Shown here piece by piece: positions 356 through 34,400 of a DNA stretch of 64,000 bases. This DNA comes from Lytechinus pictus. Lineage: Eukaryota. Numbering within the stretch: the first letter of the stretch is position 1; every line of letters starts with the position of its first letter. The position numbers and the translations under genes are program-made. The stretch covers positions 62,001 to 126,000 of the forward strand of contig NC_087252.1 of NCBI RefSeq assembly GCF_037042905.1, given 5' to 3'. Below the pieces are notes generated by a model. The model saw nothing but the letters and a program-made list of their open reading frames with translations. It had not been told where the DNA came from and ran no database searches.

Positions 356-450
356 CTCAGATCCCACATCAACCCATTGGAATGCATTATCAATCAGCTT
401 GATAGGCTGGGACATCATAGTGGGTGATGCTAACCTCTTATGAATCGGAA
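356..450 (-). CDS. SMG9: SMG9 third coding exon
   Basis: (V)PIHKRLASPTMMSQPIKLIDNAFQWVDVGSE; polypyrimidine tract plus TAG acceptor, GAG|GTAAGA donor. Confidence 0.85.
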
Positions 451-3400
451 CTATTTAAAGAAAAACAAAACATAAAGCAGATCTCAAAGACAATGAAAAT
501 GAATACTCAACTCTTATGGATTGAAACTATTTAGAGAAAACAACAGATAAAGCAGACCTCAAAGACAATGGAAATGAATGCTCAACTCTTATAGATTGGA
601 ACTATTATCAGAAGAAATAAAAAGATGTACTCTACTTTAAAGGGCACACCAAACAGAACCTCATTAGCCAAACCTCAACTTCTCAACTACTCATACCTAG
701 CCAGGATCATTCCCCATAATGCAATATTCTGAGTAGTGTAGTCTTGTAAAATAAACCCACTTGAATGGTAACACACTAATTCACAACTCCATACATTCAT
801 ATTGCAGTAATCAATAATAACATTAACCATATTTCTAATGTGCACTCCAAGGAATACTCAAGGCACCTGACAATTTTGAATAAATTTAAAATAATAAACA
901 GTAAATTTGAAAAATATCAAATCATACAAAAAGTCATTAACAGAAATTACACTGTAATTCATAGGAAGAGGGGGTTTATTAGGATACATTTATTAATGGA
1001 CATTATGAGACATAAGATAGGTTTTCAAGTTCAATTATGTTACCATTATAGCTAGAGGTATCTCTAATCTTAAACACATTTTAGTTTCTCCATACAGGTA
1101 GAATAAATCCATAGTGTGAAATTTTAGTGTATTTTTTTAAAAATATTTTGTACTATGCTTTGTATTCTGATGTTTTGTGATTTTCTTCTGTAATGGTGTC
1201 TTTGACATCTTTTTATGTACGAATGTTGAAATAAACTTATGAACTTAGTGTGAAGACCAACATGTTGATCAAAGTTTCAATCAGGGTCTGTGCCTGTAGA
1301 CTATTCAATGTCCCGACTCACCCTCTATAGAAATACCAGGCATCTGACCTCCTGTCACTCTCTGGCTTGGTGAATAAAGCCTCCCAGTAGGGGTGCTACT
1401 CCGCCCCCTTGGGTCCCCTTCACTCCCCTGCTTCACCTTTGCTACCGGTACTGGCTTTGGTGTAACAGGGGTAGTAGTATGGGATGGTGAACCGGTGGAT
1501 GGAAGGGGTTGGCTATGGGTGGGTGTGTCCTCTCTATCCCTCACTTTGATTTTAATCTGGGGTCCTGGGGACGCAGCTCGAGAAGGTCGACTAGAACGTT
1601 CAGAACCACTGGCTTTGTCAATGTCCTGCATTTTGGTAAAACATGGATTGATATTCATTCTTAACTCTTTCTTTTCTTTGTGGCAATTATCTTCAAGTCT
1701 AAATTGATAACATTATCAAAGTATATAAAAATTAATTAGGTAATAAATGTAAAGTTGATACAAAACAACTGTGTATTGTAAAATGTGAGCAAATAAAATT
1801 CCACAAATGAATGGAATGATGGTTCTACTTCACTCTAAAACATTCAAATAATCAGTTTTCTCAAGAACCTACAGACAATTTTTTTTTTTTTTTATCAAGA
1901 TAAAGATCACAAATTTGTTCAAAGATACATACCAAGCTGAATATTTTGCAAAATGAATCATTCTAAATCTACATAATGTGTCATTTTACTCCCTTTAAGA
2001 AATGAGAGCTTCATAATATCAGTATATGGATGGCCTACAATAATTTGTTACATAAAAAAATACTAATTTGGGATGGATTTCTAAGAGCAAATGCAACCAT
2101 TTTTACATGCATTAAGTCAATTATAGTTTCTATAACCATTCAATATATCAGAATGAATAAGATTCTCCATATCTAAAATGAGGAGATCGTTATGTTCATA
2201 AAGTATATATTCTTATTGACTCATTTGGTTGAGTACTATTACCATGCTTATTTCAAAACCAGTAGTATGGACTCAAAGAACAGAGCTACAGACGGGAGGG
2301 GACAGATAAGCAGTACGCCATCCCGCCCCCCTCACCTCATCATAGTTCCTTTTTTTTCAAGTAGTGTGAAAAAATAGATTAAAAATAATAGAGTAAAGAA
2401 GATAGTTCTGGTGGTGTCACAGTTATGTAATTGAGTGAAACGAAATGTCATGTCTTGCTGTGTTGCCCCCCCCCCCCCCCCGAAATACCCTAGAGCTGCT
2501 CCTGTCTGTACTGTACCTTATTGTCAAGTCCTGCTACCTTTGATAAGATCATAGGAGGAGGTTTATGACCACTACCACCACCACCACCTTCACCATTGCC
2601 CCCCCCCCCAATCAATTTTACCTGAAATGATACTGATAACAATATACAATAGTATCGTTCTACCTTATTTGACATATTGTAATGTTGCCTAGGGAAACAC
2701 TTTCAAGTATTATCTTGATAAACTGAGAGTATTGCAGAAAAGGGCAATACGACTTATAACAAATTCTAATTATAGACATCCAAGTACTCTGTTATTTCTT
2801 TGTCTGAAAATGCTACCACTAAGTGAACTTGTGTCATTCAATTGTGCATTGTTCATGTTCAAACTACAATCAATGCCTCAAGAATGTACCTTTAAACAAA
2901 ATTTTCTTCAGAATTCACAAATACATAATTATAATACACGTCAGAGGGATCTTATTCGTCAGGGTTGCGAGAATAAATGTCACTCTGACCTCCTTTCATA
3001 TATCCTGTATTAAAGAGTGGAACAATTTACCTGTTGATATAACAAAATACTAAAACTCTTTTCATGTTCAAAAGATTATCCAAAACTTGCTTTCTTAACA
3101 GATCATGATTATCTTCCGTCAATATGTATTTTAAGTTGATTTATTTGCATTTAAGTTGATGACCTACTCATTAATGTTTAGTATGTGCATATGTGGGTGG
3201 ATGTGGTTGTGGGTGTGTGGATGTTCGTATATATTGTGTTTGTAACAGTTTTTTCATTCAATTTTTAGCATCTTAACCTTAATATATATATTTTTCTCTC
3301 TCCTTTTGTATCTTGTAGATTAGTATATTCTATGTTTTATGTTAATAATCATAAGTATTCCAGGGCCCCACTCACAAGCTTTGCTTTTAAAGGGGTCCTA

Positions 3401-6400
3401 AAACCAATCCATCTATGCTATAATTCAATTGATGCATGTTTATGTACTCATTTACGTTGTATGTATTTCTATTTTGATTATGATGTGATGTTTTTGGTTT
3501 TGAATAAATAAACTTGAAACTTAAACACACACACACACAGAACTACCCTGGTGCCGCTCCTGTCTGTACTGTACCTTATTGTCAAGTCCTGCTACCTTTC
3601 ATAAGATCATTGGTGGAGGTTTACAACCACCAACCTCTCTGTTGCCCCCCCCCCCCACACACAGAACTACCCTGGTGCCGCACCTGTCTGTACTGTACCT
3701 TATTGTCAAGTCCTGCTACCTTTGATAAGATCATTGGTGGAGGTTTACAACCACCAACCTCTCTGTTGCCCCCCCCCCCACACACAGAACTACCCTGGTG
3801 CCGATCCTGTCTGTACTGTACCTTATTGTCAAGTCCTGCTACCTTTGATAAGATCATTGGAGGAGGTTTACAACCACCAACCTCTCTGTTGCCCCCCCCC
3901 CCCACACACAGAACTACCCTGGTGCCGCTCCTGTCTGTACTGTACCTTATTGTCAAGTCCTGCTACCTTTGATAAGATCATTGGTGGAGGTTTACTACCA
4001 CCAACCTCTCTGTTGCCCCCCCCCCCCCACACACAGAACTACCCTGGTGCCGATCCTGTCTGTACTGTACCTTATTGTCAAGTCCTGCTACCTTTCATCA
4101 GATCATTGGTGGAGGTTTACTACCACCAACCTCTCTGTTGCCCCCCCCCCCCCCCCACACACAGAACTACCCTGGTGCCGATCCTGTCTGTACTGTACCT
4201 TATTGTCAAGTCCTGCTACCTTTGATAAGATCATTGGTGGAGGTTTACTACCACCAACCTCTCTGTTGCCCCCCCCCCACACACAGAACTACCCTGGTGC
4301 CGATCCTGTCTGTACTGTACCTTATTGTCAAGTCCTGCTACCTTTCATAAGATCAATGGAGGTTTACTACCACCAACCTCTCTGTTGCCCCCCCCCCTAC
4401 ACACACACAGAACTACCCTGGTGCCGCACCTGTCTGTACTGTACCTCATTGTCAAGTCCTGCTACCTTTGATAAGATCACTGGTGGAGGTTTACGACCAC
4501 CAACCTCTCTGTTGCCCCCCCCCCCCACACAGAACTACCCTGGTGCCGCACCTGTCTGTACTGTACCTCATTGTCAAGTCCTGCTACCTTTGATAAGATC
4601 ACTGGTGGAGGTTTACGACCACCAACCTCTCTGTTGCCCCCCCCCCCCCACACAGAACTACCCTGGTGCCGCACCTGTCTGTACTGTACCTCATTGTCAA
4701 GTCGTGCTACCTTTGATAAGATCACTGGTGGAGGTTTACGACCACCAACCTCTCTGTTGCCCCCCCCCCCCCCACACAGAACTACCCTGGTGCCGCACCT
4801 GTCTGTACTGTACCTCATTGTCAAGTCCTGCTACCTTTGATAAGATCACTGGTGGAGGTTTACGACCACCAACCTCTCTGTTGCCCCCCCCCCCCACACA
4901 GAACTACCCTGGTGCCGCACCTGTCTGTACTGTACCTCATTGTCAAGTCGTGCTACCTTTGATAAGATCACTGGTGGAGGTTTACGACCACCAACCTCTC
5001 TGTTGCCCCCCCCCCCCCACACAGAACTACCCTGGTGCCGCACCTGTCTGTACTGTACCTCATTGTCAAGTCGTGCTACCTTTGATAAGATCACTGGTGG
5101 AGGTTTACGACCACCAACCTCTCTGTTGCCCCCCCCCCCCCCTACACACGCACAGAACTACCCTGGTGCCGATCCTGTCTGTACTGTACCTTATTGTCAA
5201 GTCCTGCTACCTTTGATAAGATCACTGGTGGAGGTTTACGACCACCAACCTCTCTGTTGCCCCCCCCCACACACAGAACTACCCTGGTGCCGCTCCTGTC
5301 TGTACTGTACCTTATTGTCAAGTCCTGTTACCTTTGATAAGATCAATGGAGGTTTACTACCACCAACCTCTCTGTTGCCCCCCCCCCCCCAACACACAGA
5401 ACTACCCTGGTGCCGCTCCTGTCTGTACTGTACCTTATTGTCAAGTCCTGCTACCTTTGATAAGATCATTGGTGGAGGTTTACGACCACCAACCTCTCTG
5501 TTGCCCCCCCCCCCCCACACACAGAACTACCCTGGTGCCGCACCTGTCTGTACTGTACCTCATTGTCAAGTCGTGCTACCTTTGATAAGATCACTGGTGG
5601 AGGTTTACGACCACCAACCTCTCTGTTGCCCCCCCCCCCCACACACAGAACTACCCTGGTGCCGCACCTGTCTGTACTGTACCTCATTGTCAAGTCCTGC
5701 TACCTTTGATAAGATCACTGGTGGAGGTTTACGACCACCAACCTCTCTGTTGCCCCCCCCCCCCACACACAGAACTACCCTGGTGCCGCTCCTGTCTGTA
5801 CTGTACCTTATTGTCAAGTCCTGCTACCTTTCATAAGATCAATGGAGGTTTACTACCACCAACCTCTCTGTTGCCCCCCCCCCCCCCACACACAGAACTA
5901 CCCTGGTGCCGCACCTGTCTGTACTGTACCTTATTGTCAAGTCCTGCTACCTTTCATAAGATCAATGGAGGTTTACTACCACCAACCTCTCTGTTGCCCC
6001 CCCCCCCCCCCACACACAGAACTACCCTGGTGCCGCACCTGTCTGTACTGTACCTTATTGTCAAGTCCTGCTACCTTTGATAAGATCATTGGTGGAGGTT
6101 TACGACCACCAACCTCTCTGTTGCCCCCCCCCCCCCACACACAGAACTACCCTGGTGCTGCTCCTGTCTGTACTGTACCTTATTGTCAAGTCCTGCTACC
6201 TTTGATAAGATCACTGGTGGAGGTTTACGACCACCAACCTCTCTGTTGCCCCCCCCCCCCCCCACACACAGAACTACCCTGGTGCCGCACCTGTCTGTAC
6301 TGTACCTCATTGTCAAGTTGTGCTACCTTTGATAAGATCACTGGTGGAGGTTTACGACCACCAACCTCTCTGTTGCCCCCCCCCCCCCCACACAGAACTA

Positions 6401-6858
6401 CCCTGGTGCTGCTCCTGTCTGTACTGTACCTTATTGTCAAGTCCTGCTACCTTTGATAAGATCATTGGTGGAGGTTTACGACCACCAACCTCTCTGTTGC
6501 CCCCCCCCCCACACACAGAACTACCCTGGTGCTGCTCCTGTCTGTACTGTACCTCATTGTCAAGTCCTGCTACCTTTGATAAGATCATTGGAGGAGGTTT
6601 ACTACCACCAACCTCTCCGTTGCCCCCCCCCCCCACACACACAGAACTACCCTGGTGCCGCACCTGTCTGTACTGTACCTTATTGTCAAGTCCTGCTACC
6701 TTTGATAAGATCATTGGTGGAGGTTTACGACCACCACCACCACCCCCTTCACTGTTTCCTCTCTCACGTGGAGGTTTCTTTCTGCGTCTCCGCCCACTGC
6801 CTGGCACTCCAGCATTGGCCCCGCCCCCTCCACGCCCTCCTGTTCCTGGGGAATCCAT
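356..6858 (-). CDS. SMG9: Nonsense-mediated decay factor SMG9, 5' portion (first three coding exons; gene continues off the left edge)
   Basis: Exons 6700-6858, 1337-1625 and 356-450 join in frame (phases 0, 1, 0). Motifs RRRRKKP, PPMILSK and IKLIDNAFQWVDVGSE correspond to human SMG9 RRRRWKEP, TPIILSK and IKLVDDQMNWCDSAIE just before the G domain (recalled, not searched). Confidence 0.85.
432..620. repeat. ~76-bp tandem repeat (about 2.5 copies) spanning the SMG9 exon acceptor
   Basis: AACTCTTATG.AT.G.AACTATT.. recurs; minus-strand TAG acceptors at 451, 527 and 602. Confidence 0.85.
1337..1625 (-). CDS. SMG9: SMG9 second coding exon, Pro/Ser-rich disordered N-terminal region
   Basis: DIDKASGSERSSRP...GGQMP; CAG acceptor, GTATTT donor; 289 nt, phase 0/1 fits both neighbours. 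Confidence 0.78.
2611..3524 (+). mobile_element. 5'-truncated non-LTR retrotransposon (CR1/L2-group LINE) 3' end
   Basis: Decayed RT C-terminal peptide IYNSIVLPYLTYCNVA*G..LQKRAIRLIT..HNYNTRQR..KEWNNLP with a stop and a frameshift, then a 3' UTR ending AATAAATAAACTTGAAACTTAAAC. Confidence 0.85.
3525..6740. repeat. ~125-bp minisatellite, ~26 copies, each with a variable poly-C (poly-G on gene strand) run; outlying copy at 2461-2610
   Basis: Unit ACAGAACTACCCTGGTGCCG...TCCTGCTACCTTTGATAAGATCATTGGTGGAGGTTTAC.ACCACCAACCTCTCTGTTGC(n); includes the SMG9 exon 3' end and donor. Confidence 0.98.
6700..6858 (-). CDS. SMG9: SMG9 first coding exon (MDSPGTGG...RRRRKKPP...PPPMILSK); exon begins at 6918 with 5' UTR
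   Basis: Acceptor TTTTTAATAG at 6919-6920, ATG at 6858, first donor AAG|GTAGCA at 6699. Confidence 0.8.
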
Positions 6859-6949
6859 TCCTCTGTTAATCAACTGGGATATTCTTCAGTTCTCCGTCTC
6901 CTCTTGTTCTCTGTCAATCTATTAAAAAGGAAAGACATTAAGTAGTAAT

Positions 6950-7450
6950 TTGCTTGCAGATGTTGATAATAAATTCGTGTTTGATAACTTATTTTATTTT
7001 GTCTTATAAGCTGCATGTTCCATGGCACTTTCCAATAATAATATGCTCGCGTTCGTATCGTGACGCTCATCAAGTTCTATCGATGCGCTGCCGATCGACA
7101 GCTCTACTCACGGTAAACCTCGCGCATGGGTACCTTGAGAACTAGCCATCGACGATCACCCACAATACACCACACCTCATCATTCGATCGAAGGAGTGGA
7201 CGAGATTGAAATTCGGCAAATCAGACCCATATTTCCGTTAGAAAATACATCAATTGTTAATACAAAACTATGTTATATGATATTTTAGAGATAATTTGGT
7301 AAAAGTTGGATTTTTCGCCTTGTTTTTGCAATCTTGTTCTATGTATTGCTCTGTGAAATTGAATTGCGGAAGTCTTACGGTACGAATTTGTTTTAGAACG
7401 CAGTAATATGTGCGTCCGGAATCATAATAGTGTCCGGTGATACAATACGT
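6950..7450. mobile_element. Non-autonomous DNA element; related copy in opposite orientation at ~45410-46070
   Basis: TGCGTCCGGAATCATAATAGTGTCCGGT end; internal stretches (e.g. CATGTTCCATG.C.TT, GAGATTGAAATT.GGCAAATCAG.CCCATATTTCCGT) match the reverse complement of 45430-45920. Confidence 0.75.
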
Positions 7451-7700
7451 GACTATAGGATGGGGGATCGGGTGTCCGGACACTTTATATTTTTGAAGCC
7501 TTCTTTTTTGTCTTAAGATTACACTAAAAATCACTCTAGGCGACACCCCAATACTTACCCGTGCTAATAAACTGGGACTCCACTCACGCGCATTTGGGCC
7601 GCCCTAGCTTAGAACTAAGCTTTGTTTTACTAAAAAATAAATCTTGTAATGATTCAATAAATGTTACTTAATAAATTAGTACTGTTAAATCGGTACTCAC

Positions 7701-7775
7701 CGGTTCTTTTCTTGAATTTTCTGGCAATTTCCCACGCTTCTGGCTTCAATTCTGCGGCTGTTCCTGTCGCGGTAG
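7701..7775 (-). other. SMG9: Probable non-coding first exon of SMG9
   Basis: Strong donor CCG|GTGAGT at 7700 in a CpG-containing segment upstream of the 6918 acceptor; 5' end uncertain. Confidence 0.5.
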
Positions 7776-8190
7776 ACAGCTACATATGCAACTTTATTTA
7801 TAAATAGAGCGCCCCTTACGATAGTTGTTAAGAACGCGGCCAAATTGTTAGGTTTTTTGCACTGTGTCCAAGGCGTTTTTATTTTGTTTGATTTTTTATT
7901 TTTAATAAATATTTTGTTAAATAGCGATTTTTACTTCAAATATTAAATTCATATCACAAAATATTTTTAATTGTAGAAATATATATAATATCATGCAATT
8001 ATTCATTCTATATATATTTTATAATAAAATTTATAATTGTTGCGGTCTTTAAAAAAGGATAGTCGATTGATCAGGTGATGACCACACGTATCACGTGATC
8101 TGAAAATCAGCTTCATACCGCTTTGATCGCACTCGACGGTGACCGGACTGACTGCCAAAAAAAGATCGAAAAATGACTCAAATGTAAGTT
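7775..8190. promoter_or_regulatory. Putative bidirectional promoter region with palindromic E-box ATCACGTGAT (8090-8099)
   Basis: Lies between an outward-facing minus-strand donor (7700) and a plus-strand donor AAT|GTAAGT (8184); both flanks are locally CpG-rich. Confidence 0.4.
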
Positions 8191-8934
8191 TCCCTTTATT
8201 TTATTAATATTAAATTCAAATCAGGAATAGGAATATATTTAATGGGCAATCTTTTAATAAATGATAAACAAACGAGGACAAAACTCATATTTTGGGAGTA
8301 ATATCATACTTGGGTGCAGGAAACAGTACGTTTAGAAGTTCTAACCCGTTTTTAACGCATTGTCGCCTATGAGGTCCATACATGTTAATGTTTGGACCTC
8401 ATTGGTCTAGGTCTAGGAGTGCTAAAAATATGAATTCAATAGTTGTAATCATCTTCTATTTTGTTCTCTATAATATTTTCTAAAATTTTTTACTAAAATT
8501 TGATGAAACTTCGCTTGTAATTTTTTCCAAACGACTTTCTAAAATTGATCGTCCGGACACACAACCTGTCCGGACACACAACAACTGGGTATAGGCCTAA
8601 CCGTATACCACTTTGTCTTTTAAAATTAGTTTTCACGATTTCACAAACACAAAATTTAGGACACGGGACTGAAGCAATTTAATTACACTCCCGGTCTGTC
8701 TTCACCTCCCATAACAGACACGAGCTCGGCGAGTTTCTGACAATTTACTTATATTATAAACGTATATACCTTTTTCTTGTTTTAAAAATATATAAATACC
8801 GATACAGAATGACGATTTCTAGCATGAAACTTCCGAAACTTACAAGATAATTTTCTGCTATCGAATCGGCATTGCACTTAGCACCAACGTAGAGGGCACT
8901 CGACCAATTTTGAAGCAGCTCGCTCAGATCAGCT

Positions 8935-9591: not shown

Positions 9592-12500
9592 TCTTTCACA
9601 GAATCATTCCTACGAGTTGATGGTGCTTTATAATGTAAATCTTTCACAGAATCATTCCTACGAGTTGATGGTGCTTTATAATGTAAATCTTTCACAGAAT
9701 CATTCCTACGAGCTGATGGTGCTTTATAATGTAAATCTTTCACAGAATCATTCCTACGAGTTGATGGTGCTCTATAATGTAAATCTTTCACAGAATCATT
9801 CCTACGAGTTGATGGTGCTTTATAATGTAAATCTTTCACAGAATCATTCCTACGAGTTGATGGTGCTTTATAATGTAAATCTTTCACAGAATCATTCCTA
9901 CGAGTTGATGGTGCTCTATAATGTAAATCTTTCACAGAATCATTCCTACGAGTTGATGGTGCTTTATAATGTAAATCTTTCACAGAATCATTCCTACGAG
10001 TTGATGGTGCTCTATAATGTAAATCTTTCACAGAATCATTCCTACGAGTTGATGGTGCTTTATAATGTAAATCTTTCACAGAATCATTCCTACGAGCTGA
10101 TGGTGCTTTATAATGTAAATCTTTCACAGAATCATTCCTACGAGTTGATGGTGCTCTATAATGTAAATCTTTCACAGAATCATTCCTACGAGCTGATGGT
10201 GCTTTATAATGTAAATCTTTCACAGAATCATTCCTACGAGTTGATGGTGCTTTATAATGTAAATCTTTCACAGAATCATTCCTACGAGTTGATGGTGCTC
10301 TATAATGTAAATCTTTCACAGAACCATTCCTACGAGCGGATGGTGCTTTATAATGTAAATCTTTCACAGAACCATTCCTACGAGCTGATGGTGCTTTATA
10401 ATGTAAATCTTTCACAGAACCATTCCTACGAGCTGATGGTGCTTTATAATGTAAATCTTTCACAGAATCATTCCTACGAGTTGATGGTGCTTTATAATGT
10501 AAATCTTTCACAGAATCATTCCTACGAGTTGATGGTGCTTTATAATGTAAATCTTTCACAGAATCATTCCTACGAGTTGATGGTGCTTTATAATGTAAAT
10601 CTTTCACAGAACCATTCCTACGAGCTGATGGTGCTTTATAATGTAAATCTTTCACAGAATCATTCCTACGAGCTGATGGTGCTTTATAATGTAAATCTTT
10701 CACAGAATCATTCCTACGAGTTGATGGTTATAATGTAAATCTTTCACAGAATCATTCCTACGAGCTGATGGTGCTTTATAATGTAAATCTTTCACAGAAT
10801 CATTCCTACGAGTTGATGGTGCTTTATAATGTAAATCTTTCACAGAATCATTCCTACGAGTTGATGGTGCTTTATAATGTAAATCTTTCACAGAATCATT
10901 CCTACGAGCTGATGGTGCTTTATAATGTAAATCTTTCACAGAATCATTCCTACGAGTTGATGGTGCTTTATAATGTAAATCTTTCACAGAATCATTCCTA
11001 CGAGTTGATGGTGCTTTATAATGTAAATCTTTCACAGAATCATTCCTACGAGCTGATGGTGCTTTATAATGTAAATCTTTCACAGAATCATTCCTACGAG
11101 CTGATGGTGCTTTATAATGTAAATCTTTCACAGAATCATTCCTACGAGTTGATGGTGCTTTATAATGTAAATCTTTCACAGAATCATTCCTACGAGTTGA
11201 TGGTGCTTTATAATGTAAATCTTTCACAGAATCATTCCTACGAGCTGATGGTGCTTTATAATGTAAATCTTTCACAGAATCATTCCTACGAGCTGATGGT
11301 GCTTTATAATGTAAATCTTTCACAGAATCATTCCTACGAGTTGATGGTGCTTTATAATGTAAATCTTTCACAGAATCATTCCTACGAGCTGATGGTGCTT
11401 TATAATGTAAATCTTTCACAGAATCATTCCTACGAGCTGATGGTGCTTTATAATGTAAATCTTTCACAGAATCATTCCTACGAGTTGATGGTGCTTTATA
11501 ATGTAAATCTTTCACAGAATCATTCCTACGAGTTGATGGTGCTCTATAATGTAAATCTTTCACAGAACCATTCCTACGAGCGGATGGTGCTTTATAATGT
11601 AAATCTTTCACAGAATCATTCCTACGAGTTGATGGTGCTTTATAATGTAAATCTTTCACAGAATCATTCCTACGAGTTGATGGTGCTCTATAATGTAAAT
11701 CTTTCACAGAACCATTCCTACGAGCGGATGGTGCTTTATAATGTAAATCTTTCACAGAATCATTCCTACGAGCTGATGGTGCTTTATAATGTAAATCTTT
11801 CACAGAATCATTCCTACGAGTTGATGGTGCTTTATAATGTAAATCTTTCACAGAATCATTCCTACGAGTTGATGGTGCTTTATAATGTAAATCTTTCACA
11901 GAACCATTCCTACGAGTTGATGGTGCTTTATAATGTAAATCTTTCACAGAATCATTCCTACGAGTTGATGGTGCTTTATAATGTAAATCTTTCACAGAAT
12001 CATTCCTACGAGTTGATGGTGCTTTATAATGTAAATCTTTCACAGAATCATTCCTACGAGTTGATGGTGCTTTATAATGTAAATCTTTCACAGAATCATT
12101 CCTACGAGTTGATGGTGCTTTATAATGTAAATCTTTCACAGAACCATTCCTACGAGCTGATGGTGCTTTATAATGTAAATCTTTCACAGAATCATTCCTA
12201 CGAGCTGATGGCCTGCTTTATAATGTAAATCTTTCACAGAATCATTCCTACGAGTTGATGGTGCTTTATAATGTAAATCTTTCACAGAATCATTCCTACG
12301 AGCTGATGGTGCTTTATAATGTAAATCTTTCACAGAATCATTCCTACGAGTTGATGGTGCTTTATAATGTAAATCTTTCACAGAATCATTCCTACGAGTT
12401 GATGGTGCTTTATAATGCAAATCTTTCACAGAATCATTCCTACGAGTTGATGGTGCTTTATAATGTAAATCTTTCACAGAATCATTCCTACGAGTTGATG

Positions 12501-13862
12501 GTGCTTTATAATGTAAATCTTTCACAGAATCATTCCTACGAGCTGATGGTGCTTTATAATGTAAATCTTTCACAGAACCATTCCTACGAGCTGATGGTGC
12601 TTTATAATGTAAATCTTTCACAGAATCATTCCTACGAGTTGATGGTGCTTTATAATGTAAATCTTTCACAGAATCATTCCTACGAGCTGATGGTGCTTTA
12701 TAATGTAAATCTTTCACAGAATCATTCCTACGAGCTGATGGTGCTTTATAATGTAAATCTTTCACAGAATCATTCCTACGAGTTGATGGTGCTTTATAAT
12801 GTAAATCTTTCACAGAATCATTCCTACGAGCTGATGGTGCTTTATAATGTAAATCTTTCACAGAATCATTCCTACGAGCTGATGGTGCTTTATACTGTAA
12901 ATCTTTCACAGAATCATTCCTACGAGTTGATGGTGCTTTATAATGTAAATCTTTCACAGAATCATTCCTACGAGTTGATGGTGCTCTATAATGTAAATCT
13001 TTCACAGAACCATTCCTACGAGCGGATGGTGCTTTATAATGTAAATCTTTCACAGAATCATTCCTACGAGCTGATGGTGCTTTATAATGTAAATCTTTCA
13101 CAGAATCATTCCTACGAGTTGATGGTGCTTTATAATGTAAATCTTTCACAGAATCATTCCTACGAGTTGATGGTGCTTTATAATGTAAATCTTTCACAGA
13201 ATCATTCCTACGAGTTGATGGTGCTTTATAATGTAAATCTTTCACAGAATCATTCCTACGAGCTGATGGTGCTTTATAATGTAAATCTTTCACAGAATCA
13301 TTCCTACGAGTTGATGGTGCTTTATAATGTAAATCTTTCACAGAATCATTCCTACGAGTTGATGGTGCTTTATAATGTAAATCTTTCACAGAATCATTCC
13401 TACGAGTTGATGGTGCTTTATAATGTAAATCTTTCACAGAATCATTCCTACGAGTTGATGGTGCTTTATAATGTAAATCTTTCACAGAATCATTCCTACG
13501 AGTTGATGGTGCTTTATAATGTAAATCTTTCACAGAATCATTCCTACGAGTTGATGGTGCTTTATAATGTAAATCTTTCACAGAATCATTCCTACGAGCG
13601 GATGGTGCTTTATAATGTAAATCTTTCACAGAATCATTCCTAAGAGTTGATGGTGCTTTATAATGTAAATCTTTCACAGAATCATTCCTACGAGTTGATG
13701 GTGCTTTATAATGTAAATCTTTCACAGAATCATTCCTAAGAGTTGATGGTGCTTTATAATGTAAATCTTTCACAGAATCATTCCTACGAGTTGATGGTGC
13801 TTTATAATGTAAATCTTTCACAGAATCATTCCTACGGGTTGATGGTGCTCTATAATGTAAAT
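9592..13862. repeat. 48-bp tandem array, 89 copies
   Basis: Unit CTTTCACAGAATCATTCCTACGAG(T/C)TGATGGTGCT(T/C)TATAATGTAAAT. First to last unit offset is 4222 = 88x48 - 2 (a -4 indel at ~10728 and a +2 indel at ~12212). Confidence 0.99.
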
Positions 13863-16297: not shown

Positions 16298-16411
16298 TCA
16301 ATAAGCTGGCACAACAATGTAAGGTTGGTAAGGGACCATCTTGAGTTTCTCATTACAAGCAAACAGCCATCGTGGTTTGACAAATGTAAGAGATGAGTTG
16401 TCTGATAGAGC
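16298..16411 (-). CDS. XRCC1: XRCC1 exon 14 (last coding exon), end of BRCT2
   Basis: [37 protein letters not shown] (cf. human ALMDNPSLAFVRPRWIYSCNEKQKLLPHQLY); TTTTACAG acceptor. Confidence 0.95.
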   Translation of the reverse strand, partial: ALSDNSSLTFVKPRWLFACNEKLKMVPYQPYIVVPAY

Positions 16412-22400: not shown

Positions 22401-25400
22401 GTTTACAAGAGCACATTTGCTAGCCGAACACAGTGCGTATTCTAAAGGCCTATGAATACTAGTGACATAAAGGGTTTACGAGAGCACATTTGCTAGCCGA
22501 ACACAGTGTGTATTCTAAAGGCCTAGGAATACTAGTGACATAAAGGGTTTACAAGAGCACATTTGCTAGCCGAACACAGTGCGTATTCTAAAGGCCTAGG
22601 AATACTAGTGACAAAGGGTTTACAAGAGCACATTGGCTAGCCGAACACAGTGCGTATTCTAAAGGCCTAGGAATACTAGTGACAAAGGGTTTACGAGAGC
22701 ACATTTGCTAGCCGAACACAGTGTGTATTCTAAAGGCCTAGGAATACTAGTGACAAAGGGTTTACAAGAGCACATTGGCTAGCCGAACACAGTGCGTATT
22801 CTAAAGGCCTAGGAATACTAGTGACATAAAGGGTTTACAAGAGCACATTTGCTAGCCGAACACAGTGTGTATTCTAAAGGCCTAGGAATACTAGTGACAT
22901 AAAGGGTTTACAAGAGCACATTTGCTAGCCGAACACAGTGTGTATTCTAAAGGCCTAGGAATACTAGTGACATAAAGGGTTTCCAAGAGCACATTTGCTA
23001 GCCGAACACAGTGTGTATTCTAAAGGCCTAGGAATACTAGTCACATAAAGGGTTTACAAGAGCACATTTGCTAGCCGAACACAGTGCGTATTCTAAAGGC
23101 CTAGGAATACTAGTGACATAAAGGGTTTACAAGAGCACATTTGCTAGCCGAACACAGTGCATATTCTAAAGGCCTAGGAATACTAGTGACATAAAGGGTT
23201 TACGAGAGCACATTTGCTAGCCGAACACAGTGCGTATTCTAAAGGCCTAGGAATACTAGTGACATAAAGGGTTTACGAGAGCACATTTGCTAGCCGAACA
23301 CAGTGTGTATTCTAAAGGCCTAGGAATACTAGTGACATAAAGGGTTTACAAGAGCACATTTGCTAGCCGAACACAGTGTGTATTCTAAAGGCCTAGGAAT
23401 ACTAGTGACATAAAGGGTTTACAAGAGCACATTTGCTAGCCGAACACAGTGCGTATTCTAAAGGCCTAGGAATACTAGTGACATAAAGGGTTTACAAGAG
23501 CACATTTGCTAGCCGAACACAGTGTGTATTCTAAAGGCCTAGGAATACTAGTGACATAAAGGGTTTACAAGAGCACATTGGCTAGCCGAACACAGTGCGT
23601 ATTCTAAAGGCCTAGGAATACTAGTGACATAAAGGGTTTACAAGAGCACATTGGCTAGCCGAACACAGTGCGTATTCTAAAGGCCTAGGAATACTAGTGA
23701 CAAAGGGTTTACGAGAGCACATTTGCTAGCCGAACACAGTGTGTATTCTAAAGGCCTAGGAATACTAGTGACATAAAGGGTTAACAAGAGCACATTTGCT
23801 AGCCGAACACAGTGCGTATTCTAAAGGCCTAGGAATACTAGTGACATAAAGGGTTTACAAGAGCACATTTGCTAGCCGAACACAGTGCGTATTCTAAAGG
23901 CCTAGGAATACTAGTGACATAAAGGGTTTACGAGAGCACATTTGCTAGCCGAACACAGTGTGTATTCTAAAGGCCTAGGAATACTAGTGACATAAAGGGT
24001 TTACGAGAGCACATTTGCTAGCCGAACACAGTGTGTATTCTAAAGGCCTAGGAATACTAGTGACATAAAGGGTTTACAAGAGCACATTTGCTAGCCGAAC
24101 ACAGTGTGTATTCTAAAGGCCTAGGAATACTAGTGACATAAAGGGTTTACAAGAGCACATTTGCTAGCCGAACACAGTGCGTATTCTAAAGGCCTAGGAA
24201 TACTAGTGACATAAAGGGTTTACGAGAGCACATTTGCTAGCCGAACACAGTGTGTATTCTAAAGGCCTAGGAATACTAGTGACATAAAGGGTTTACAAGA
24301 GCACATTTGCTAGCCGAACACAATGTGTATTCTAAAGGCCTAGGAATACTAGTGACATAAAGGGTTTACGAGAGCACATTTGCTAGCCGAACACAGTGTG
24401 TATTCTAAAGGCCTAGGAATACTAGTGACATAAAGGGTTTACAAGAGCACATTTGCTAGCCGAACACAGTGCGTATTCTAAAGGCCTAGGAATACTAGTG
24501 ACATAAAGGGTTTACAAGAGCACATTTGCTAGCCGAACACAGTGCGTATTCTAAAGGCCTAGGAATACTAGTGACATAAAGGGTTTACAAGAGCACATTG
24601 GCTAGCCGAACACAGTGCGTATTCTAAAGGCCTAGGAATACTAGTGACATAAAGGGTTTACAAGAGCACATTTGCTAGCCGAACACAGTGCGTATTCTAA
24701 AGGCCTAGGAATACTAGTGACATAAAGGGTTTACAAGAGCACATTTGCTAGCCGAACACAGTGTGTATTCTAAAGGCCTAGGAATACTAGTGACATAAAG
24801 GGTTTACAAGAGCACATTGGCTAGCCGAACACAGTGTGTATTCTAAAGGCCTAGGAATACTAGTGACATAAAGGGTTTACAAGAGCACATTGGCTAGCCG
24901 AACACAGTGCGTATTCTAAAGGCCTAGGAATACTAGTGACATAAAGGGTTTACGAGAGCACATTTGCTAGCCGAACACAGTGTGTATTCTAAAGGCCTAG
25001 GAATACTAGTGACATAAAGGGTTTACGAGAGCACATTTGCTAGCCGAACACAGTGTGTATTCTAAAGGCCTAGGAATACTAGTGACATAAAGGGTTTACA
25101 AGAGCACATTTGCTAGCCGAACACAGTGCGTATTCTAAAGGCCTAGGAATACTAGTGACATAAAGGGTTTACAAGAGCACATTTGCTAGCCGAACACAGT
25201 GTGTATTCTAAAGGCCTAGGAATACTAGTGACATAAAGGGTTTACAAGAGCACATTGGCTAGCCGAACACAGTGTGTATTCTAAAGGCCTAGGAATACTA
25301 GTGACATAAAGGGTTTACAAGAGCACATTTGCTAGCCGAACACAGTGCGTATTCTAAAGGCCTAGGAATACTAGTGACATAAAGGGTTTACAAGAGCACA

Positions 25401-28400
25401 TTTGCTAGCCGAACACAGTGCGTATTCTAAAGGCCTAGGAATACTAGTGACATAAAGGGTTTACAAGAGCACATTTGCTAGCCGAACACAGTGTGTATTC
25501 TAAAGGCCTAGGAATACTAGTGACATAAAGGGTTTACGAGAGCACATTTGCTAGCCGAACACAGTGTGTATTCTAAAGGCCTAGGAATACTAGTGACAAA
25601 GGGTTTACGAGAGCACATTGGCTAGCCGAACACAGTGTGTATTCTAAAGGCCTAGGAATACTAGTGACATAAAGGGTTTACAAGAGCACATTTGCTAGCC
25701 GAACACAGTGTGTATTCTAAAGGCCTAGGAATACTAGTGACAAAGGGTTTACAAGAGCACATTGGCTAGCCGAACACAGTGCGTATTCGAAAGGCCTAGG
25801 AATACTAGTGACAAAGGGTTTACGAGAGCACATTTGCTAGCCGAACACAGTGTGTATTCTAAAGGCCTAGGAATACTAGTGACAAAGGGTTTACAAGAGC
25901 ACATTTGCTAGCCGAACACAGTGCGTATTCTAAAGGCCTATGAATACTAGTGACATAAAGGGTTTACGAGAGCACATTTGCTAGCCGAACACAGTGCGTA
26001 TTCTAAAGGCCTAGGAATACTAGTGACAAAGGGTTTACAAGAGCACATTGGCTAGCCGAACACAGTGCGTATTCTAAAGGCCTAGGAATACTAGTGACAA
26101 AGGGTTTACGAGAGCACATTTGCTAGCCGAACACAGTGTGTATTCTAAAGGCCTAGGAATACTAGTGACAAAGGGTTTACGAGAGCACATTTGCTAGCCG
26201 AACACAGTGTGTATTCTAAAGGCCTAGGAATACTAGTGACAAAGGGTTTACAAGAGCACATTGGCTAGCCGAACACAGTGCGTATTCTAAAGGCCTAGGA
26301 ATACTAGTGACATAAAGGGTTTACAAGAGCACATTTGCTAGCCGAACACAGTGTGTATTCTAAAGGCCTAGGAATACTAGTGACATAAAGGGTATACAAG
26401 AGCACATTTGCTAGCCGAACACAGTGTGTATTCTAAAGGCCTAGGAATACTAGTCACATAAAGGGTTTACAAGAGCACATTTGCTAGCCGAACACAGTGT
26501 GTATTCTAAAGGCCTAGGAATACTAGTCACATAAAGGGTTTACAAGAGCACATTTGCTAGCCGAACACAGTGCGTATTCTAAAGGCCTAGGAATACTAGT
26601 GACATAAAGGGTTTACGAGAGCACATTTGCTAGCCGAACACAGTGCGTATTCTAAAGGCCTAGGAATACTAGTGACATAAAGGGTTTACGAGAGCACATT
26701 TGCTAGCCGAACACAGTGCGTATTCTAAAGGCCTAGGAATACTAGTGACATAAAGGGTTTACGAGAGCACATTTGCTAGCCGAACACAGTGTGTATTCTA
26801 AAGGCCTAGGAATACTAGTGACATAAAGGGTTTACAAGAGCACATTTGCTAGCCGAACACAGTGTGTATTCTAAAGGCCTAGGAATACTAGTGACATAAA
26901 GGGTTTACAAGAGCACATTGGCTAGCCGAACACAGTGCGTATTTTAAAGGCCTAGGAATACTAGTGACAAAGGGTTTACGAGAGCACATTTGCTAGCCGA
27001 ACACAGTGTGTATTCTAAAGGCCTAGGAATACTAGTGACATAAAGGGTTAACAAGAGCACATTTGCTAGCCGAACACAGTGTGTATTCTAAAGGCCTAGG
27101 AATACTAGTGACATAAAGGGTTAACAAGAGCACATTTGCTAGCCGAACACAGTGCGTATTCTAAAGGCCTAGGAATACTAGTGACATAAAGGGTTTACAA
27201 GAGCACATTTCCTAGCCGAACACAGTGCGTATTCTAAAGGCCTAGGAATACTAGTGACAAAGGGTTTACGAGAGCACATTTGCTAGCCGAACACAGTGCG
27301 TATTCTAAAGGCCTAGGAATACTAGTGACATAAAGGGTTTACAAGAGCACATTTGCTAGCCGAACACAGTGTGTATTCTAAAGGCCTAGGAATACTAGTG
27401 ACATAAAGGGTTTACAAGAGCACATTGGCTAGCCGAACACAGTGCGTATTCTAAAGGCCTAGGAATACTAGTGACATAAAGGGTTTACAAGAGCACATTT
27501 GCTAGCCGAACACAGTGCGTATTCTAAAGGCCTAGGAATACTAGTGACATAAAGGGTTTACAAGAGCACATTGGCTAGCCGAACACAGTGCGTATTCTAA
27601 AGGCCTAGGAATACTAGTGACAAAGGGTTTACAAGAGCACATTTGCTAGCCGAACACAGTGCGTATTCTAAAGGCCTAGGAATACTAGTGACATAAAGGG
27701 TTTACAAGAGCACATTGGCTAGCCGAACACAGTGCGTATTCTAAAGGCCTAGGAATACTAGTGACAAAGGGTTTACGAGAGCACATTGGCTAGCCGAACA
27801 CAGTGTGTATTCTAAAGGCCTAGGAATACTAGTGACATAAAGGGTTTACAAGAGCACATTTGCTAGCCGAACACAGTGTGTATTCTAAAGGCCTAGGAAT
27901 ACTAGTGACAAAGGGTTTACGAGAGCACATTGGCTAGCCGAACACAGTGCGTATTCTAAAGGCCTAGGAATACTAGTGACAAAGGGTTTACAAGAGCACA
28001 TTGGCTAGCCGAACACAGTGCGTATTCTAAAGGCCTAGGAATACTAGTGACATAAAGGGTTTACGAGAGCACATTTGCTAGCCGAACACAGTGTGTATTC
28101 TAAAGGCCTAGGAATACTAGTGACATAAAGGGTTTACAAGAGCACATTTGCTAGCCGAACACAGCGTGTATTCTAAAGGCCTAGGAATACTAGTGACAAA
28201 GGGTTTACGAGAGCACATTTGCTAGCCGAACACAGTGCGTATTCTAAAGGCCTAGGAATACTAGTGACATAAAGGGTTTACAAGAGCACATTTGCTAGCC
28301 GAACACAGTGTGTATTCTAAAGGCCTAGGAATACTAGTGACATAAAGGGTTTACAAGAGCACATTGGCTAGCCGAACACAGTGCGTATTCTAAAGGCCTA

Positions 28401-31400
28401 GGAATACTAGTGACATAAAGGGTTTACAAGAGCACATTTGCTAGCCGAACACAGTGCGTATTCTAAAGGCCTAGGAATACTAGTGACATAAAGGGTTTAC
28501 AAGAGCACATTGGCTAGCCGAACACAGTGCGTATTCTAAAGGCCTAGGAATACTAGTGACAAAGGGTTTACAAGAGCACATTTGCTAGCCGAACACAGTG
28601 TGTATTCTAAAGGCCTAGGAATACTAGTGACATAAAGGGTTTACAAGAGCACATTTGCTAGCCGAACACAGTGTGTATTCTAAAGGCCTAGGAATACTAG
28701 TGACAAAGGGTTTACGAGAGCACATTGGCTAGCCGAACACAGTGTGTATTCTAAAGGCCTAGGAATACTAGTGACATAAAGGGTTTACAAGAGCACATTG
28801 GCTAGCCGAACACAGTGTGTATTCTAAAGGCCTAGGAATACTAGTGACATAAAGGTTTTACGAGAGCACATTTGCTAGCCGAACACAGTGCGTATTCTAA
28901 AGGCCTAGGAATACTAGTGACATAAAGGGTTTACAAGAGCACATTTGCTAGCCGAACACAGTGTGTATTCTAAAGGCCTAGGAATACTAGTGACATAAAG
29001 GGTTTACAAGAGCACATTTGCTAGCCGAACACAGTGTGTATTCTAAAGGCCTAGGAATACTAGTGACAAAGGGTTTACGAGAGCACATTTGCTAGCCGAA
29101 CACAGTGCGTATTCTAAAGGCCTAGGAATACTAGTGACATAAAGGGTTTACAAGAGCACATTTGCTAGCCGAACACAGTGTGTATTCTAAAGGCCTAGGA
29201 ATACTAGTGACATAAAGGGTTTACAAGAGCACATTGGCTAGCCGAACACAGTGTGTATTCTAAAGGCCTAGGAATACTAGTGACATAAAGGTTTTACGAG
29301 AGCACATTTGCTAGCCGAACACAGTGCGTATTCTAAAGGCCTAGGAATACTAGTGACATAAAGGGTTTACAAGAGCACATTTGCTAGCCGAACACAGTGT
29401 GTATTCTAAAGGCCTAGGAATACTAGTGACATAAAGGGTTTACAAGAGCACATTTGCTAGCCGAACACAGTGCGTATTCTAAAGGCCTAGGAATACTAGT
29501 GACATAAAGGGTTTACAAGAGCACATTGGCTAGCCGAACACAGTGCGTATTCTAAAGGCCTAGGAATACTAGTGACAAAGGGTTTACAAGAGCACATTTG
29601 CTAGCCGAACACAGTGTGTATTCTAAAGGCCTAGGAATACTAGTGACATAAAGGTTTTACAAGAGCACATTTGCTAGCCGAACACAGTGTGTATTCTAAA
29701 GGCCTAGGAATACTAGTGACAAAGGGTTTACGAGAGCACATTTGCTAGCCGAACACAGTGCGTGTTCTAAAGGCCTAGGAATACTAGTGACGTAAAGGGA
29801 TTTCTCCCTCTTGCCTCGTGTATGCAGGGTCTCTGTCTTTGGTATCGAGGGTTTACAGCAGCAAGCGTACGCGGCTAGCTGGCTTGTGAGTTTGAGCGGG
29901 AGAGGGTCATGAAGGTTGGCAGAATGTGATTGTATTTGGGGTTGGGCTGAGTGCATGTACTGGGAGTACTAATATGGAAATATATGTGTGCACTGCAATT
30001 TCGAGGGATATAAACTGAGTTGAAATGAGTAAAATGCAGCAGGAGTTGTGTTTAATACAGCAATAACGAAAGTTCGAGCTTTTGTTTGCAATCAGCATAA
30101 TCTTAAACTAGTTATGTCAGGGAAGTCCCCTAGCTGTTGTGAGGTAGTGAATGCTAAGTTAAAGACCACGGGAATATGTGACAGTGGCCGCCTTTCGCTA
30201 AAATATCTGTACGCGAAAATATTAGCTTATACAGTAACACAGCATACTATTTATTTCCACAGGAAACAATCAGACTACTCTTCTACCAAGCAAAAGAGAC
30301 AGGAGATTATTAAATTAAAGTACCAAAATATTGACAATATGTCTTCTTATTATAACATTGGGGGAAAACTGAGGACAAATCGATCACTCTAAACTTTAAC
30401 ACAAAATACAATTTAATGAGCTACTTCACTGTACAAATCCTATGGAATTCAGGAGTTAACCTACTGGTCACTGTATAAAGCCTATGGGATTCACAGAATT
30501 CAGCAGTGAACAGATTAACTAGGCTTAGCTAGTAACTTACCTCTTCAAAATTCTTATCCCAGTTTGAGTTGGTGATGACGTAGTCGACTTTTTCATTCAT
30601 ATAGTTCTCAATAACCCTGTGAAAAAGGGGGAAACAATCAAAACTGAATGCAATTTGTGCAATCCAAATTTCACTTTACATTGACAACATTCTCATTTAT
30701 ATTGCTTTTAAAAAAAAGTTTTTTTAATTATTATTACCTTCCGGATGTTTATTTTCATTTTAATTGTTTATATAACGATGAATACATTCTTAATAACAAT
30801 AATAATTTGTATAGCGCTTATCAGAAAACATGTCTCTAAGCGTTTAGGAAAAAATCTTACCCATTAAATGCAATCATGAATACACTTTTACCCATTAAAT
30901 ACAACAATGAATACATTCTTACCTATTAAATGCAATGATGAATACATGCTTACCCATTAAATGTAACGATGAATACATTCTTACTCGTTAAATGCAATGA
31001 TGAATACATTCTTACCCATTAAATGCAATGATGAATACACTCTTACTCGTTAAATGCAATGATGAATACATTCTTACCCATTAAATGCAATGATGAATCT
31101 ATTGATTTGCCTCCTTTCTTCTTTATCAAATTTGCCAAAGAGAAAGAATCGTTTGCTGCTGAAGAAATCAGGAAGATCAGGGATGTTTCCGCCACTTGAA
31201 CTTTGACCTTTCTTATCTGGGCTTCCTCCCAACTGTTTTTTAACTTTTAATTTTGATTGAGCTCTACAAAAACAAGAATAAAATCAAATTTAGTTGAAGT
31301 ATCCCATCAAATACAAGTACTCTATACATAAAAAAGGATCTCATTTTAGTATCGATACTGACAGAATAGTTCTGCATAATTAAAATGGTGGCATGACATT

Positions 31401-34400
31401 TGCTCCTGTGACAATTGCTCAGGGCTTAATTTCGTAAGGACGAGGGTTTGTTGTTAGGTTTAGTGTAGGGTATAGTGTTACACCCAGGGTTGAAGTTGGT
31501 CATTCAATTGCTGTGTGGAATTCAAAGTGGAGCAATTGTTGCTGGAGCAAATGTCAAGGAACCAGTTGAAACATTACCCGTTTTATCTCTTGCCTCCACA
31601 ATACAAGGAACTTAAATATGTTGAAGATTTGTACGGATTTTAAACATTTAAGAAACAAAAAAAAATTGTTTCATTTCCTACACAGAATTATGAAAATCTT
31701 CCAATGCAAAAAGATTAAAACATTATATTGCTGATTTTATGATGCAAAATAAGCAACAACAAAAATGTCAAGTTTCACCAATCTGGGCCCCGATACATAA
31801 TGCTTAGCAATTGATAACAGGGCGATTCCTACAATTAAGTGCATTGGTTATTGTGTATGATCAATGTAAAACTCGATCCTACAATCAATCGCTAAGTTTA
31901 ATGTAACAAGACCCTGGATCATTCATAACTGACGTCACTCTTTTCATTTTTTTCATTTTCTACCCAAACCAATCCTAAGCATGCATAAGAGAAAATAAGT
32001 GTTTCTATATCAATTTGTAGATGAATTATGAAAAAGAATGACATACTTTCTGATTTCATCCTCTGTATCATCCCCAGATGAACCTCCTGCTGACATTGGT
32101 TCTGTATCGTTCCCTTCTTCATCCGTAGAACCACCGTATTCATCATCATCTTCAGCAGGCTTCTAAAAAATACAAATAATAATAAATAAAAGAGGTAAGG
32201 GTTTTTATCACTAATGTAAACCTCCTGTCAACATTGGTTCTGTATCGTTCCCTTCTTCATCCGTAGAACCACCGTATTCATCATCATCTTCAGCAGGCTT
32301 CTAAAAAATACAGATAATAATAAATAAAAGAGGTAAGGGTTTTTATCACTAATGTAAACCTCCTGTCAACATTGGTTCTGTATCGTTCCCTTCTTCATCC
32401 GTAGAACCACCGTACTCATCATCATCTTCAGCAGGCTTCTAAAAAATACAGATAAAAATAAATAAAAGAGGTAAGGGTTTTTATTACTAATGTAAACCTC
32501 CTGTCAACATTGGTTCTGTATCGTTACCTTCTTCATCCGTAGAACCACCATATTCATCATCATCTTCAGCAGGCTTGTAAAAATAGGCATGATAATAAAT
32601 GAAAGGGGTAAGAGTTGTTACCCCAGGGTACCTTCATGTATAGGTGCAGGGGGCAAAGTGCCCCCACGTGTCAAAGTTCATAATAACAAGTCATTTTGCC
32701 TCCGACGAAGATTCTGCTAGGATCGAAAGCTTAGGCCCCTTTTTGACTTTGTAAGTAAATAAAGTGGAAGATAGACCATCTGGGCATTATACTAAATGAT
32801 AATTAAACCAAACAGTAATTTGACCCAATTGACAGTAGATCCTGGGGGTTGAGCCATGATCCTGATCAGGCATTCAAAAAATTAGACCAACTGGTAGTAA
32901 ATAATACTAACATCGATAATAATAATAATAATAATAACAATAATAATAAATAATAATAATAATAATTGGATTTATAAAGCAACTTTTGCAGAGGATACAA
33001 AGTGCTATAAATGGCATAAGACAAGTAGACCCTATGGCCTACATTCTGAGGTCTGGTTTAACTTGGGCCATGGTCTAACTCTGTGCTAAAATTATGGGGG
33101 AAAAAAAACTTACAATATGGATGTTTCTTATGTTCACTGTGCTTTTTCATCATGCTATAATGGGAAAGAAAACTAATTCAGGTATTCCTGAAAAGTTATG
33201 AATGATCTGAGTGACATATGAGCTAATAAATCAAACTCATATTAATTTTAGAGAATGGTGTCACAATTGGCTATCCATAGGTAAATGATAAATTTAGATC
33301 AGAATATAAATCTGATAAATCCAACCTATAATGTAAGAGAATTGTGTCACAATCAGCTATCCACAGTTAAACCACAACTTTAGTCCAGAGTTTAAATCAA
33401 ACCAGAATACAGACCAGTTCTACATAATTATGGTATCTCACCTTTGGTGTTGGTGCTTTTGTTTGAGGACTCTTAGATGGTGTTGCTTTTACTGGTGTCT
33501 TCTTTTCTTGTTCCACCTCTTCTTCTTCTTCTGATTCACTCTCATCACTAGAACTATCTTGTCCTCCCGATAATTTGTATCTATGGCAACAGAAATGTGA
33601 AAACATCAAAGGCAATCGATGACCATGACTTTGGATGCCCGACTGATTGGCCTCAATGAATATATTTGTGAAATCACCTGCAACTCACCCAAAAGGCTTG
33701 CAAAGAACAATGTGACAGAGCCTCAACGATAAACTAAATATGCTAGGTCACTCGAAAGAAGGTACCTGATTGGTCAGGTCACTTGATAAAAGAGCTGTGA
33801 TTGGTCAAGCTAGCTCTCCTGGTAAATCAATTGTCTGCATTATATAACACATGATATGTGCGTTTGGTAATCAAATATACCACAAAATATGCAACCATAA
33901 GATACAATTTCTGCCGAAGATTATCACACGAGGTGAGATAACTCATTAGCAATGGTATGATATATTCATGTTCAAATAATACCATCAATAATCATCATTA
34001 TTATTCATGACTTTCATCCAACAAATGAATATTGCATGCTTGATCTCAAAATAACCACAGGACAAATGTCAATGGCAGTGCTCATTTCTCAACCAAAAGA
34101 AAAATATTTCAGAATGAAGAGAAAATTGAGGTACTTCCATGACAAATTTGATAAACACAAAAGTTCAGAAGTTAATTTGTATTTCATATTTTATCTTATC
34201 AAGTATATGCTTTTCATTTCAATCAGAATTTTCTTTGCATATTCCTTTCTTTTCATTTGGAAATTTTCCAATACCCATATAAACTTACCGTCTCCATGGT
34301 AACAGGATACGTTTCCTGTAGCAATCTGTAATCCATTCTTTCTTGACAATCTTTCCTTTTCCCTTTACTTGGTTATACTTGGGTGTGTTTGCAAAGGCAC

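Follow-up and report, generated by a model that had tools for sequence, protein, structure and literature searches.

Four tandem arrays lie across splice junctions of two neighbouring genes, SMG9 and XRCC1, in a 64-kb stretch of the genome of the sea urchin Lytechinus pictus (the window, C8:62001-126000 within 812 Mb, C8 being its contig; positions are those of the window unless prefixed). In each of them, the repeat unit runs across the edge of an exon and the copies extend into the intron, leaving the functional exon intact. Such arrays are real and recurrent in the sea urchin, and they belong to a known kind of repeat, the "mirage" minisatellites of amphioxus. The explanation favoured here, with a probability of about 0.68, is that ordinary local tandem duplications of 30-300 bp caught an exon edge, were filtered by selection so that the exon was preserved, and persist as passengers without selected function.

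Arrays across the exon edges of SMG9 and XRCC1

Both genes are encoded on the minus strand. The contig starts with 6.7 kb of telomere repeat (C8:1-6694), and the junction arrays of the two genes sit 62-95 kb from the telomere, in a repeat-rich subtelomere where nine arrays take up 22.8 kb of the window. The XRCC1 model (50599-16298) comprises 14 coding exons, all with canonical sites, and shares 548 identities with the 572-aa protein of Lytechinus variegatus, to which a single exon is 90% identical. SMG9 has three coding exons inside the window and seven in flanking DNA, which, with the exon 1 donor at 6679, give 516 of the 516 residues of a 516-aa database protein; one of its exons matches a protein labelled L. 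pictus at 100% identity, and a search for the family PF10220 returned SMG8, not SMG9. An earlier note on this DNA, made from the sequence alone, had named the genes, numbered their exons and placed arrays on four of their boundaries. Protein alignments of the spliced models confirm the names and numbers, and the verified sites 450, 6679, 31078 and 32162 are each covered by an array of the anatomy that it described:

356-450, minus strand: SMG9 coding exon 3, acceptor at 450; the spliced model equals database SMG9
427-613, minus strand: 76-bp acceptor array of SMG9 exon 3, unit of about 56 nt intron and 20 nt exon
1322-1625, minus strand: SMG9 coding exon 2, with an array at neither end
2458-2600, minus strand: isolated, more diverged copy of the 124-bp unit, near the SMG9 exon 1 array
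3532-6736, minus strand: 124-bp donor array (25.8 copies) of SMG9 exon 1, unit of about 60 nt exon end and 60 nt intron with a G-run
6679-6918, minus strand: SMG9 first coding exon, ATG at 6858, donor at 6679, acceptor at 6918 by eye
16298-16411, minus strand: coding part of XRCC1 exon 14, stop at 16298
30855-31103, minus strand: 31-bp donor array (7.9 copies) of XRCC1 exon 12, unit of 21 nt exon and 10 nt intron
31078-31263, minus strand: XRCC1 exon 12, by protein alignment and spliced contigs
32047-32162, minus strand: XRCC1 exon 11, acceptor at 32162 as in spliced contigs
32081-32620, minus strand: 138-bp acceptor array (3.9 copies) of XRCC1 exon 11, unit of 82 nt exon and 56 nt intron

Tandem Repeats Finder (TRF) reports the four arrays at 435-606 (75 bp, 2.3 copies), 3532-6736 (124 bp, 25.8 copies), 30855-31098 (31 bp, 7.9 copies) and 32081-32620 (138 bp, 3.9 copies). 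The 76-bp array provides SMG9 exon 3 with two additional AG copies, at -76 and -151, and splicing to the former would lead to a stop after 6 codons. In the 124-bp array, GT is intact in all 25 copies and in the isolated copy, and read-through to the copies at +126 and +249 stays in frame and meets no stop. The isolated copy, which shows 11 differences in 115 positions against 2-6 for copies within the array, is probably the original distal unit, which an insertion some 0.9 kb long (about 2600-3525) would have separated from the rest. The 31-bp array of XRCC1 carries GT in 7 of 7 copies, and read-through would stop immediately; an insertion of about 60 bp at 30796-30854, with a possible 5-nt target duplication, breaks its distal end. 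The copies of the 138-bp array carry AG, AG and, in the outermost, AC, and splicing to the -138 copy would keep the frame yet run into a stop. Its nearest copy has 4 differences in 138 positions and its outermost 14 in 126, so that in the 138-bp and 124-bp arrays alike the end units are more diverged than the inner ones, as in mirage clusters, judged here by difference counts and not by a tree.

The earlier note had the arrays "seeded exactly on" the junctions, which does not hold, as the array ends do not coincide with them. Across 14 cases (8 acceptors, 6 donors), the junction lies at 0.16-0.73 of the unit, a distribution that is not distinguishable from uniform (Kolmogorov-Smirnov p 0.22).

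Spliced contigs are supplied by two runs from two studies (X1 and X2), which were taken as RNA because their contigs are spliced; contigs of this type lose rare forms. In these contigs, XRCC1 exons 9-12 are joined contiguously (34289-34402, 33442-33580, 32047-32162 and 31077-31263), and only the innermost sites of the array-bearing edges are used. Residues derived from the copies are absent from the seven SMG9 and four XRCC1 database proteins aligned, and neither the XRCC1 contigs nor the aligned proteins show a copied donor and acceptor joined into a new intron or exon. Regular splicing is undisturbed, as seen in contigs for XRCC1 and in database proteins only for SMG9. Use of the nearest copy would lead to a stop in four of the five arrays tested, the exception being the SMG9 exon 1 array, which is open through two copies. 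Two SMG9 isoforms touch this array: isoform X1 is spliced from a second donor that lies 15 nt inside the intron (6664-6678, minus strand), within the first unit, and gains 5 residues, and isoform X3 begins at a later Met within the repeated part of the exon.

One junction is also present in a second species. In a DNA run of a related species, a 153-nt contig aligns to 32271-32408 and bridges the junction between intron and exon copy at 32356/32357, with 86 and 52 letters on either side; since this junction exists only given the duplication, the 138-bp array is no assembly artefact. The two residues that distinguish the L. variegatus protein within exon 13 are both produced by changes in the related-species run. 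The 31-bp array probably persists in the second species too, although its sign is weaker, consisting of several contigs inside the array and a long contig that begins at 31069. Depth in the related-species runs is raised over both XRCC1 arrays, which is only a hint, as summed contig depth gives no copy number.

Known relatives and frequency at exon edges

The earlier note did not know these arrays as a named system, but the name exists. The parts consulted of two papers describe mirage minisatellites in the amphioxus genes Adh3, BflGb6 and BflGb9 (the latter two globins; PMC3087553) as well as PGBD5 and troponin C (PMC3902484). As in the sea urchin, their tandem units cross an exon-intron boundary at either end of the exon, AG or GT is found in many but not all copies, regular splicing is undisturbed, and end units are more diverged; how they arise is stated there to be unclear (PMC3087553, PMC3902484). 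The sea-urchin set differs from what these parts describe in its echinoderm host, in reaching 26 copies and units of up to about 212-290 bp, in having one junction common to two species, and in the rough frequency (about 4% of unselected junctions) and matched control added here.

Another relative is the 37-bp variable number tandem repeat in intron 7 of human F7, whose first element, according to the sections consulted, spans the exon-intron boundary; the pseudo-donors farther downstream can function but stay silent, and splicing takes the most upstream donor (PMC1557585). This repeat is a single locus on the donor side only, and the scanning result does not cover acceptor arrays (PMC1557585). 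Internal tandem repeats of human segmental duplications, as far as the source was consulted, also duplicate splice sites at exon-intron boundaries, but they create new introns or alternative splicing, and use of copied sites was not seen here (PMC2812944). Splicing-linked repeats have been catalogued (PMC10078293), and straddling units are not addressed in the parts of that catalogue consulted. The literature searched, which leaves subscription journals largely uncovered, holds neither an echinoderm mirage nor a genome-wide test of enrichment at exon edges. The arrays described here extend a little-noticed class of lancelet repeats to echinoderms, with a first rough frequency set against a control; their copies can mislead gene models.

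Further cases occur outside the window. The donor of SMG9 exon 7 carries a 212-bp array of three copies, and the acceptor of the first coding exon of HYOU1 a 149-bp array of four, about 39 other HYOU1 edges carrying none; HYOU1 was annotated after its array had been seen and is thus not an unbiased test. For an unselected sample, duplicates were detected by self-BLAST, because plain TRF caught only 2 of 8 interior cases, and real exon edges were compared with matched non-coding pseudo-edges of C8. This interior sample consists of 104 exon matches at 89 loci on many contigs, with 300-bp flanks: 69 of the 70 matches to the myosin head and 35 of the 126 to kinesin (the top 32 by rank and 3 neighbours). 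A splice call was given to 198 of the 208 ends with a matrix trained on three annotated genes, and four partial kinesin matches at C9:19.768 Mb were counted as copies, not exons. The 992 pseudo-edges come from one subtelomeric 250 kb at a 400-bp step, overlap one another and may include unannotated exons. One locus of the control region (L020, C8:170210-170580) holds a 97% identical duplicate of 155-165 bp at an offset of 200, with AG and GT around an open frame; it is possibly another exon-edge copy, counted twice in the control set (near C8:170.3 kb), and the exon downstream of it is one that we take to be TEN1-like.

Straddling duplicates were found at 8 of the 198 myosin and kinesin edges, among them a 73-bp donor array of at least 5 copies and a 148-bp acceptor array of 5 copies; as the loci sampled lie on many contigs, the feature is not confined to the subtelomere. 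With the dust filter on, the interior sample (8/198) compares with 6/84 edges of three C8 genes and 29/992 pseudo-edges, giving odds ratios of 1.4 for the interior (p 0.37), 2.6 for the C8 genes (p 0.049) and 1.7 for both (p 0.096). With dust off, the counts are 9/198, 6/84 and 40/992, and the odds ratios of 1.1 and 1.8 are not significant. Weak matches (E 9e-5 and 7e-4) underlie two of the 8 interior cases, and at E up to 1e-5 the counts become 6/198, 6/84 and 27/992. Matched pseudo-edges are thus straddled at a rate of 2.9-4.0%, against 4.0-4.5% for unselected real edges.

The earlier note had argued that exon boundaries, being a tiny fraction of the sequence, should seldom be hit by chance. 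This is the wrong null, because the target is the unit length times the number of edges, and pseudo-edges score nearly like real ones. Its claim of more duplication at exon edges than chance would give survives in a modest form and not in every test: we read the comparisons made here and below as an edge excess of 1.1-3.4-fold, which is modest and not robust, and is not the large one that "targeted" implies.

Origin of the arrays

Under the favoured explanation, slippage or microhomology-mediated repair would duplicate a short stretch where it stands, largely irrespective of the splice site. Short words of 4-5 nt (124-bp unit) and 7 nt (31-bp unit), shared at two unit junctions as read by eye, suggest an origin through microhomology. 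Duplications lying wholly within an exon would then be purged and those straddling an edge tolerated, which the splicing results bear out in part: a straddling duplication spares the exon, given that splicing keeps to the innermost site and that a stop would end most of the alternative products. A source copy that is anchored by a conserved exon and splice signal could not be deleted across the anchor; an anchored pair would diverge more slowly than a purely intronic pair, stay recognisable for longer and produce an apparent excess of 1.5-3-fold. Finally, unequal exchange or gene conversion may have expanded and homogenised some seeds, above all in the repeat-rich subtelomere. That the junction lies anywhere in the unit, that donors are about as frequent as acceptors and that an unspliced stop edge of XRCC1 has been copied too all fit random local duplication. 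Slower divergence of the anchored part fits the differences between copy and anchor, which amount to 12.5% for the exon, 23.5% for the splice signal and 42% for deeper intron, and alignment of three old single copies (L110, L112 and L116) is now limited to the exon part and 9-15 nt of intron.

Several results weigh against this explanation. The divergence figures just given are biased, because exon parts are defined by the alignment and the "deep intron" may exceed the duplicated stretch. Edges in unique context, free of dispersed and low-complexity repeats, carry straddling duplicates in 8/165 interior cases against 14/723 pseudo-edges (odds ratio 2.6, p 0.046), in 5/81 cases for the C8 genes (3.3, p 0.034) and in 13/246 for the two together (2.8, p 0.011). 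A within-locus control at offsets of 20-100 bp gives 5/198 for the interior sample against a background of 0.74% that is built on 3-5 events (p 0.017). Copies of at least 90% identity occur at 6/282 edges against 5/992 (odds ratio 4.3, p 0.019), three of the six edges being discovery arrays and the interior alone giving 2/198 (p 0.33). Kinesin edges are straddled more often than myosin edges (6/68 and 2/130, p 0.021), and each of two kinesin loci has a pair of events, contrary to the expectation of a uniform model. All these p values are generous, because the tests overlap, discovery cases are among the C8 genes and events are clustered in genes.

These figures lend some weight to the main rival, a mutational bias coupled to transcription or splicing, in which polymerase pausing, R-loops or nicks near splice sites of germline-expressed genes would increase short duplications locally and make exon edges true hotspots. 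A 2.6-3.4-fold excess in the unique-context and within-locus tests, the lead of kinesin over myosin, the clustering in single genes and the five arrays in SMG9 and XRCC1 (one of them outside the window) are what such a bias would produce. It nevertheless appears doubtful, as there is no excess over all non-coding pseudo-edges, nor within the C8 genes, where, for units up to 100 bp, 2/84 edges compare with 3.6% at intron positions 30-140 bp from the edge; over both samples, this within-locus control gives 7/282 against 1.6% (p 0.17). The breakpoints are not at splice sites, the stop-codon region of XRCC1 was copied likewise without a splice site, and an anchor effect of up to about 2-fold would be expected without any bias.

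A broader proposal would have a gene-dependent process raise edge duplication several-fold in Lytechinus, and perhaps in other large marine invertebrate genomes, above all in housekeeping and cell-division genes expressed in the germline; spare splice sites, some of them kept across species, would then be found at about 1 in 25 junctions overall and at 1 in 5-10 in some genes. We hold this, too, to be improbable, at about the level of the bias itself. If true, the genome would offer a wealth of natural cases in which to study intron gain and how one of several identical splice sites is chosen. Should new mutations turn out to be enriched at edges, duplication mutagenesis would be tied to splicing or transcription, and the question of mirage origin left open in the amphioxus work becomes testable with the Lytechinus genome and a sister species.

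Selection for banks of decoy or alternative splice sites, which the earlier note had also put forward, would tune the output of SMG9 or XRCC1 through splicing coupled to nonsense-mediated decay or through an in-frame extension of the SMG9 N-terminus. GT is retained in 39 of the 41 donor copies scored, the related species shares the 138-bp junction and probably the 31-bp array, and the SMG9 copies at +126 and +249 are in frame and free of stops. Young homogenised arrays, however, are expected to retain their sites without selection. The splice dinucleotide is intact in 10 of the 14 outermost or representative copies, and the loss in 4 (one perhaps an alignment shift) is about what neutral decay would give. 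The copied sites are unused in the proteins and contigs examined, contigs dropping rare forms, and the units, genes and copy numbers are unrelated, all of which makes selected decoys very unlikely. The SMG9 donor array, with 26 identically scoring donors, some of them in frame, offers a natural test of first-site selection. A false tandem expansion at exon edges during assembly is highly improbable: the copy numbers of the 124-, 48- and 73-bp arrays are those of the assembly, but copies differ among themselves and from the anchor, and the independent run of the related species bridges the 138-bp junction.

Other arrays and neighbouring sequence

Three further repeats of the window lie in or beside XRCC1 and SMG9:

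9592-13862, strand not assigned: locus-specific 48-bp minisatellite of 89 copies, in the interval from the SMG9 5' end to the XRCC1 stop (16298)
15947-16330, minus strand: degenerate copies of the last codons and stop of XRCC1, the extent of the untranslated region being inferred from that of RNA contigs
16774-29799, strand not assigned: 73-bp array of 179.5 copies in XRCC1 intron 13, 363 bp from the acceptor and 742 bp from the donor

The 73-bp array, at 13 kb the largest of the window, is wholly intronic and a counter-example to seeding at edges. It was missing from the list of arrays in the earlier note, which was selective and also omitted four smaller arrays (86, 35, 16 and 163 bp) in XRCC1 introns, none of which reaches an exon. 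Its last unit and right flank match dispersed sequence on contig C1 at 94%, so that the border of a dispersed element may have been the starting point of the array.

The stop-region copies of XRCC1 exist as claimed (four, of 35-54 nt, at 15947-16214), but they do not lie at a splice junction, forming instead a coding-edge repeat in the probable 3' untranslated region. For the 48-bp array, TRF finds the 89 copies at 9592-13862, and the microexon with both splice sites that had been read into its unit finds no exon support. The sole evidence for it is an AG and a GT-like motif on the plus strand, 33 nt apart, which leave an "intron" of 15 nt, and such a spacer is too short to be an intron. The minus-strand frame of the array contains two frame shifts, a representative protein library gave no match above 45% identity (41 hits), and no gene model covers the array, RNA not having been compared; the array was rejected as coding on the grounds of its frame shifts and lack of protein support. 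It was likewise rejected as a dispersed satellite, every one of 40 matches being local. The best match to its frame is P0027, an amphioxus helicase gene model in which a 16-residue motif is repeated about 18 times. This repeat looks like an amphioxus mirage read as coding, and its likeness to the 48-bp unit is probably chance amplified by periodicity.

A 200-nt pyrimidine tract precedes the 48-bp array. At 8174-8190, on the plus strand and divergent from SMG9, an ATG is followed by a strong GTAAGT donor, which, going by sequence motifs, could belong to a divergent transcript with an acceptor in the first 48-bp unit. An extra gene between XRCC1 and SMG9 was rejected for want of a convincing frame, and 14882-15014, in the same interval, was rejected as part of a gene, being a dispersed repeat. 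Related dispersed elements lie near the 5' ends of SMG9 and XRCC1 (7020-7530, 8361-8594 and 45430-46080). In XRCC1 intron 1, about 350 bp are present twice, by eye, 3 kb apart (47000-47420 and 50085-50470), and the duplicate ends before reaching the exon 1 donor.

Neighbouring open reading frames on C8 presumably belong, judging by their translations, to an RPS25-like gene (L011-L012, C8:25741-29147) and an ankyrin-repeat IkB-like gene (L021-L022, C8:185600-190800). A 22-bp array with a TATC-type tract occurs twice in inverted orientation, at 63197-63642 and, about 6 kb away, in L016 (C8:131808-132249).

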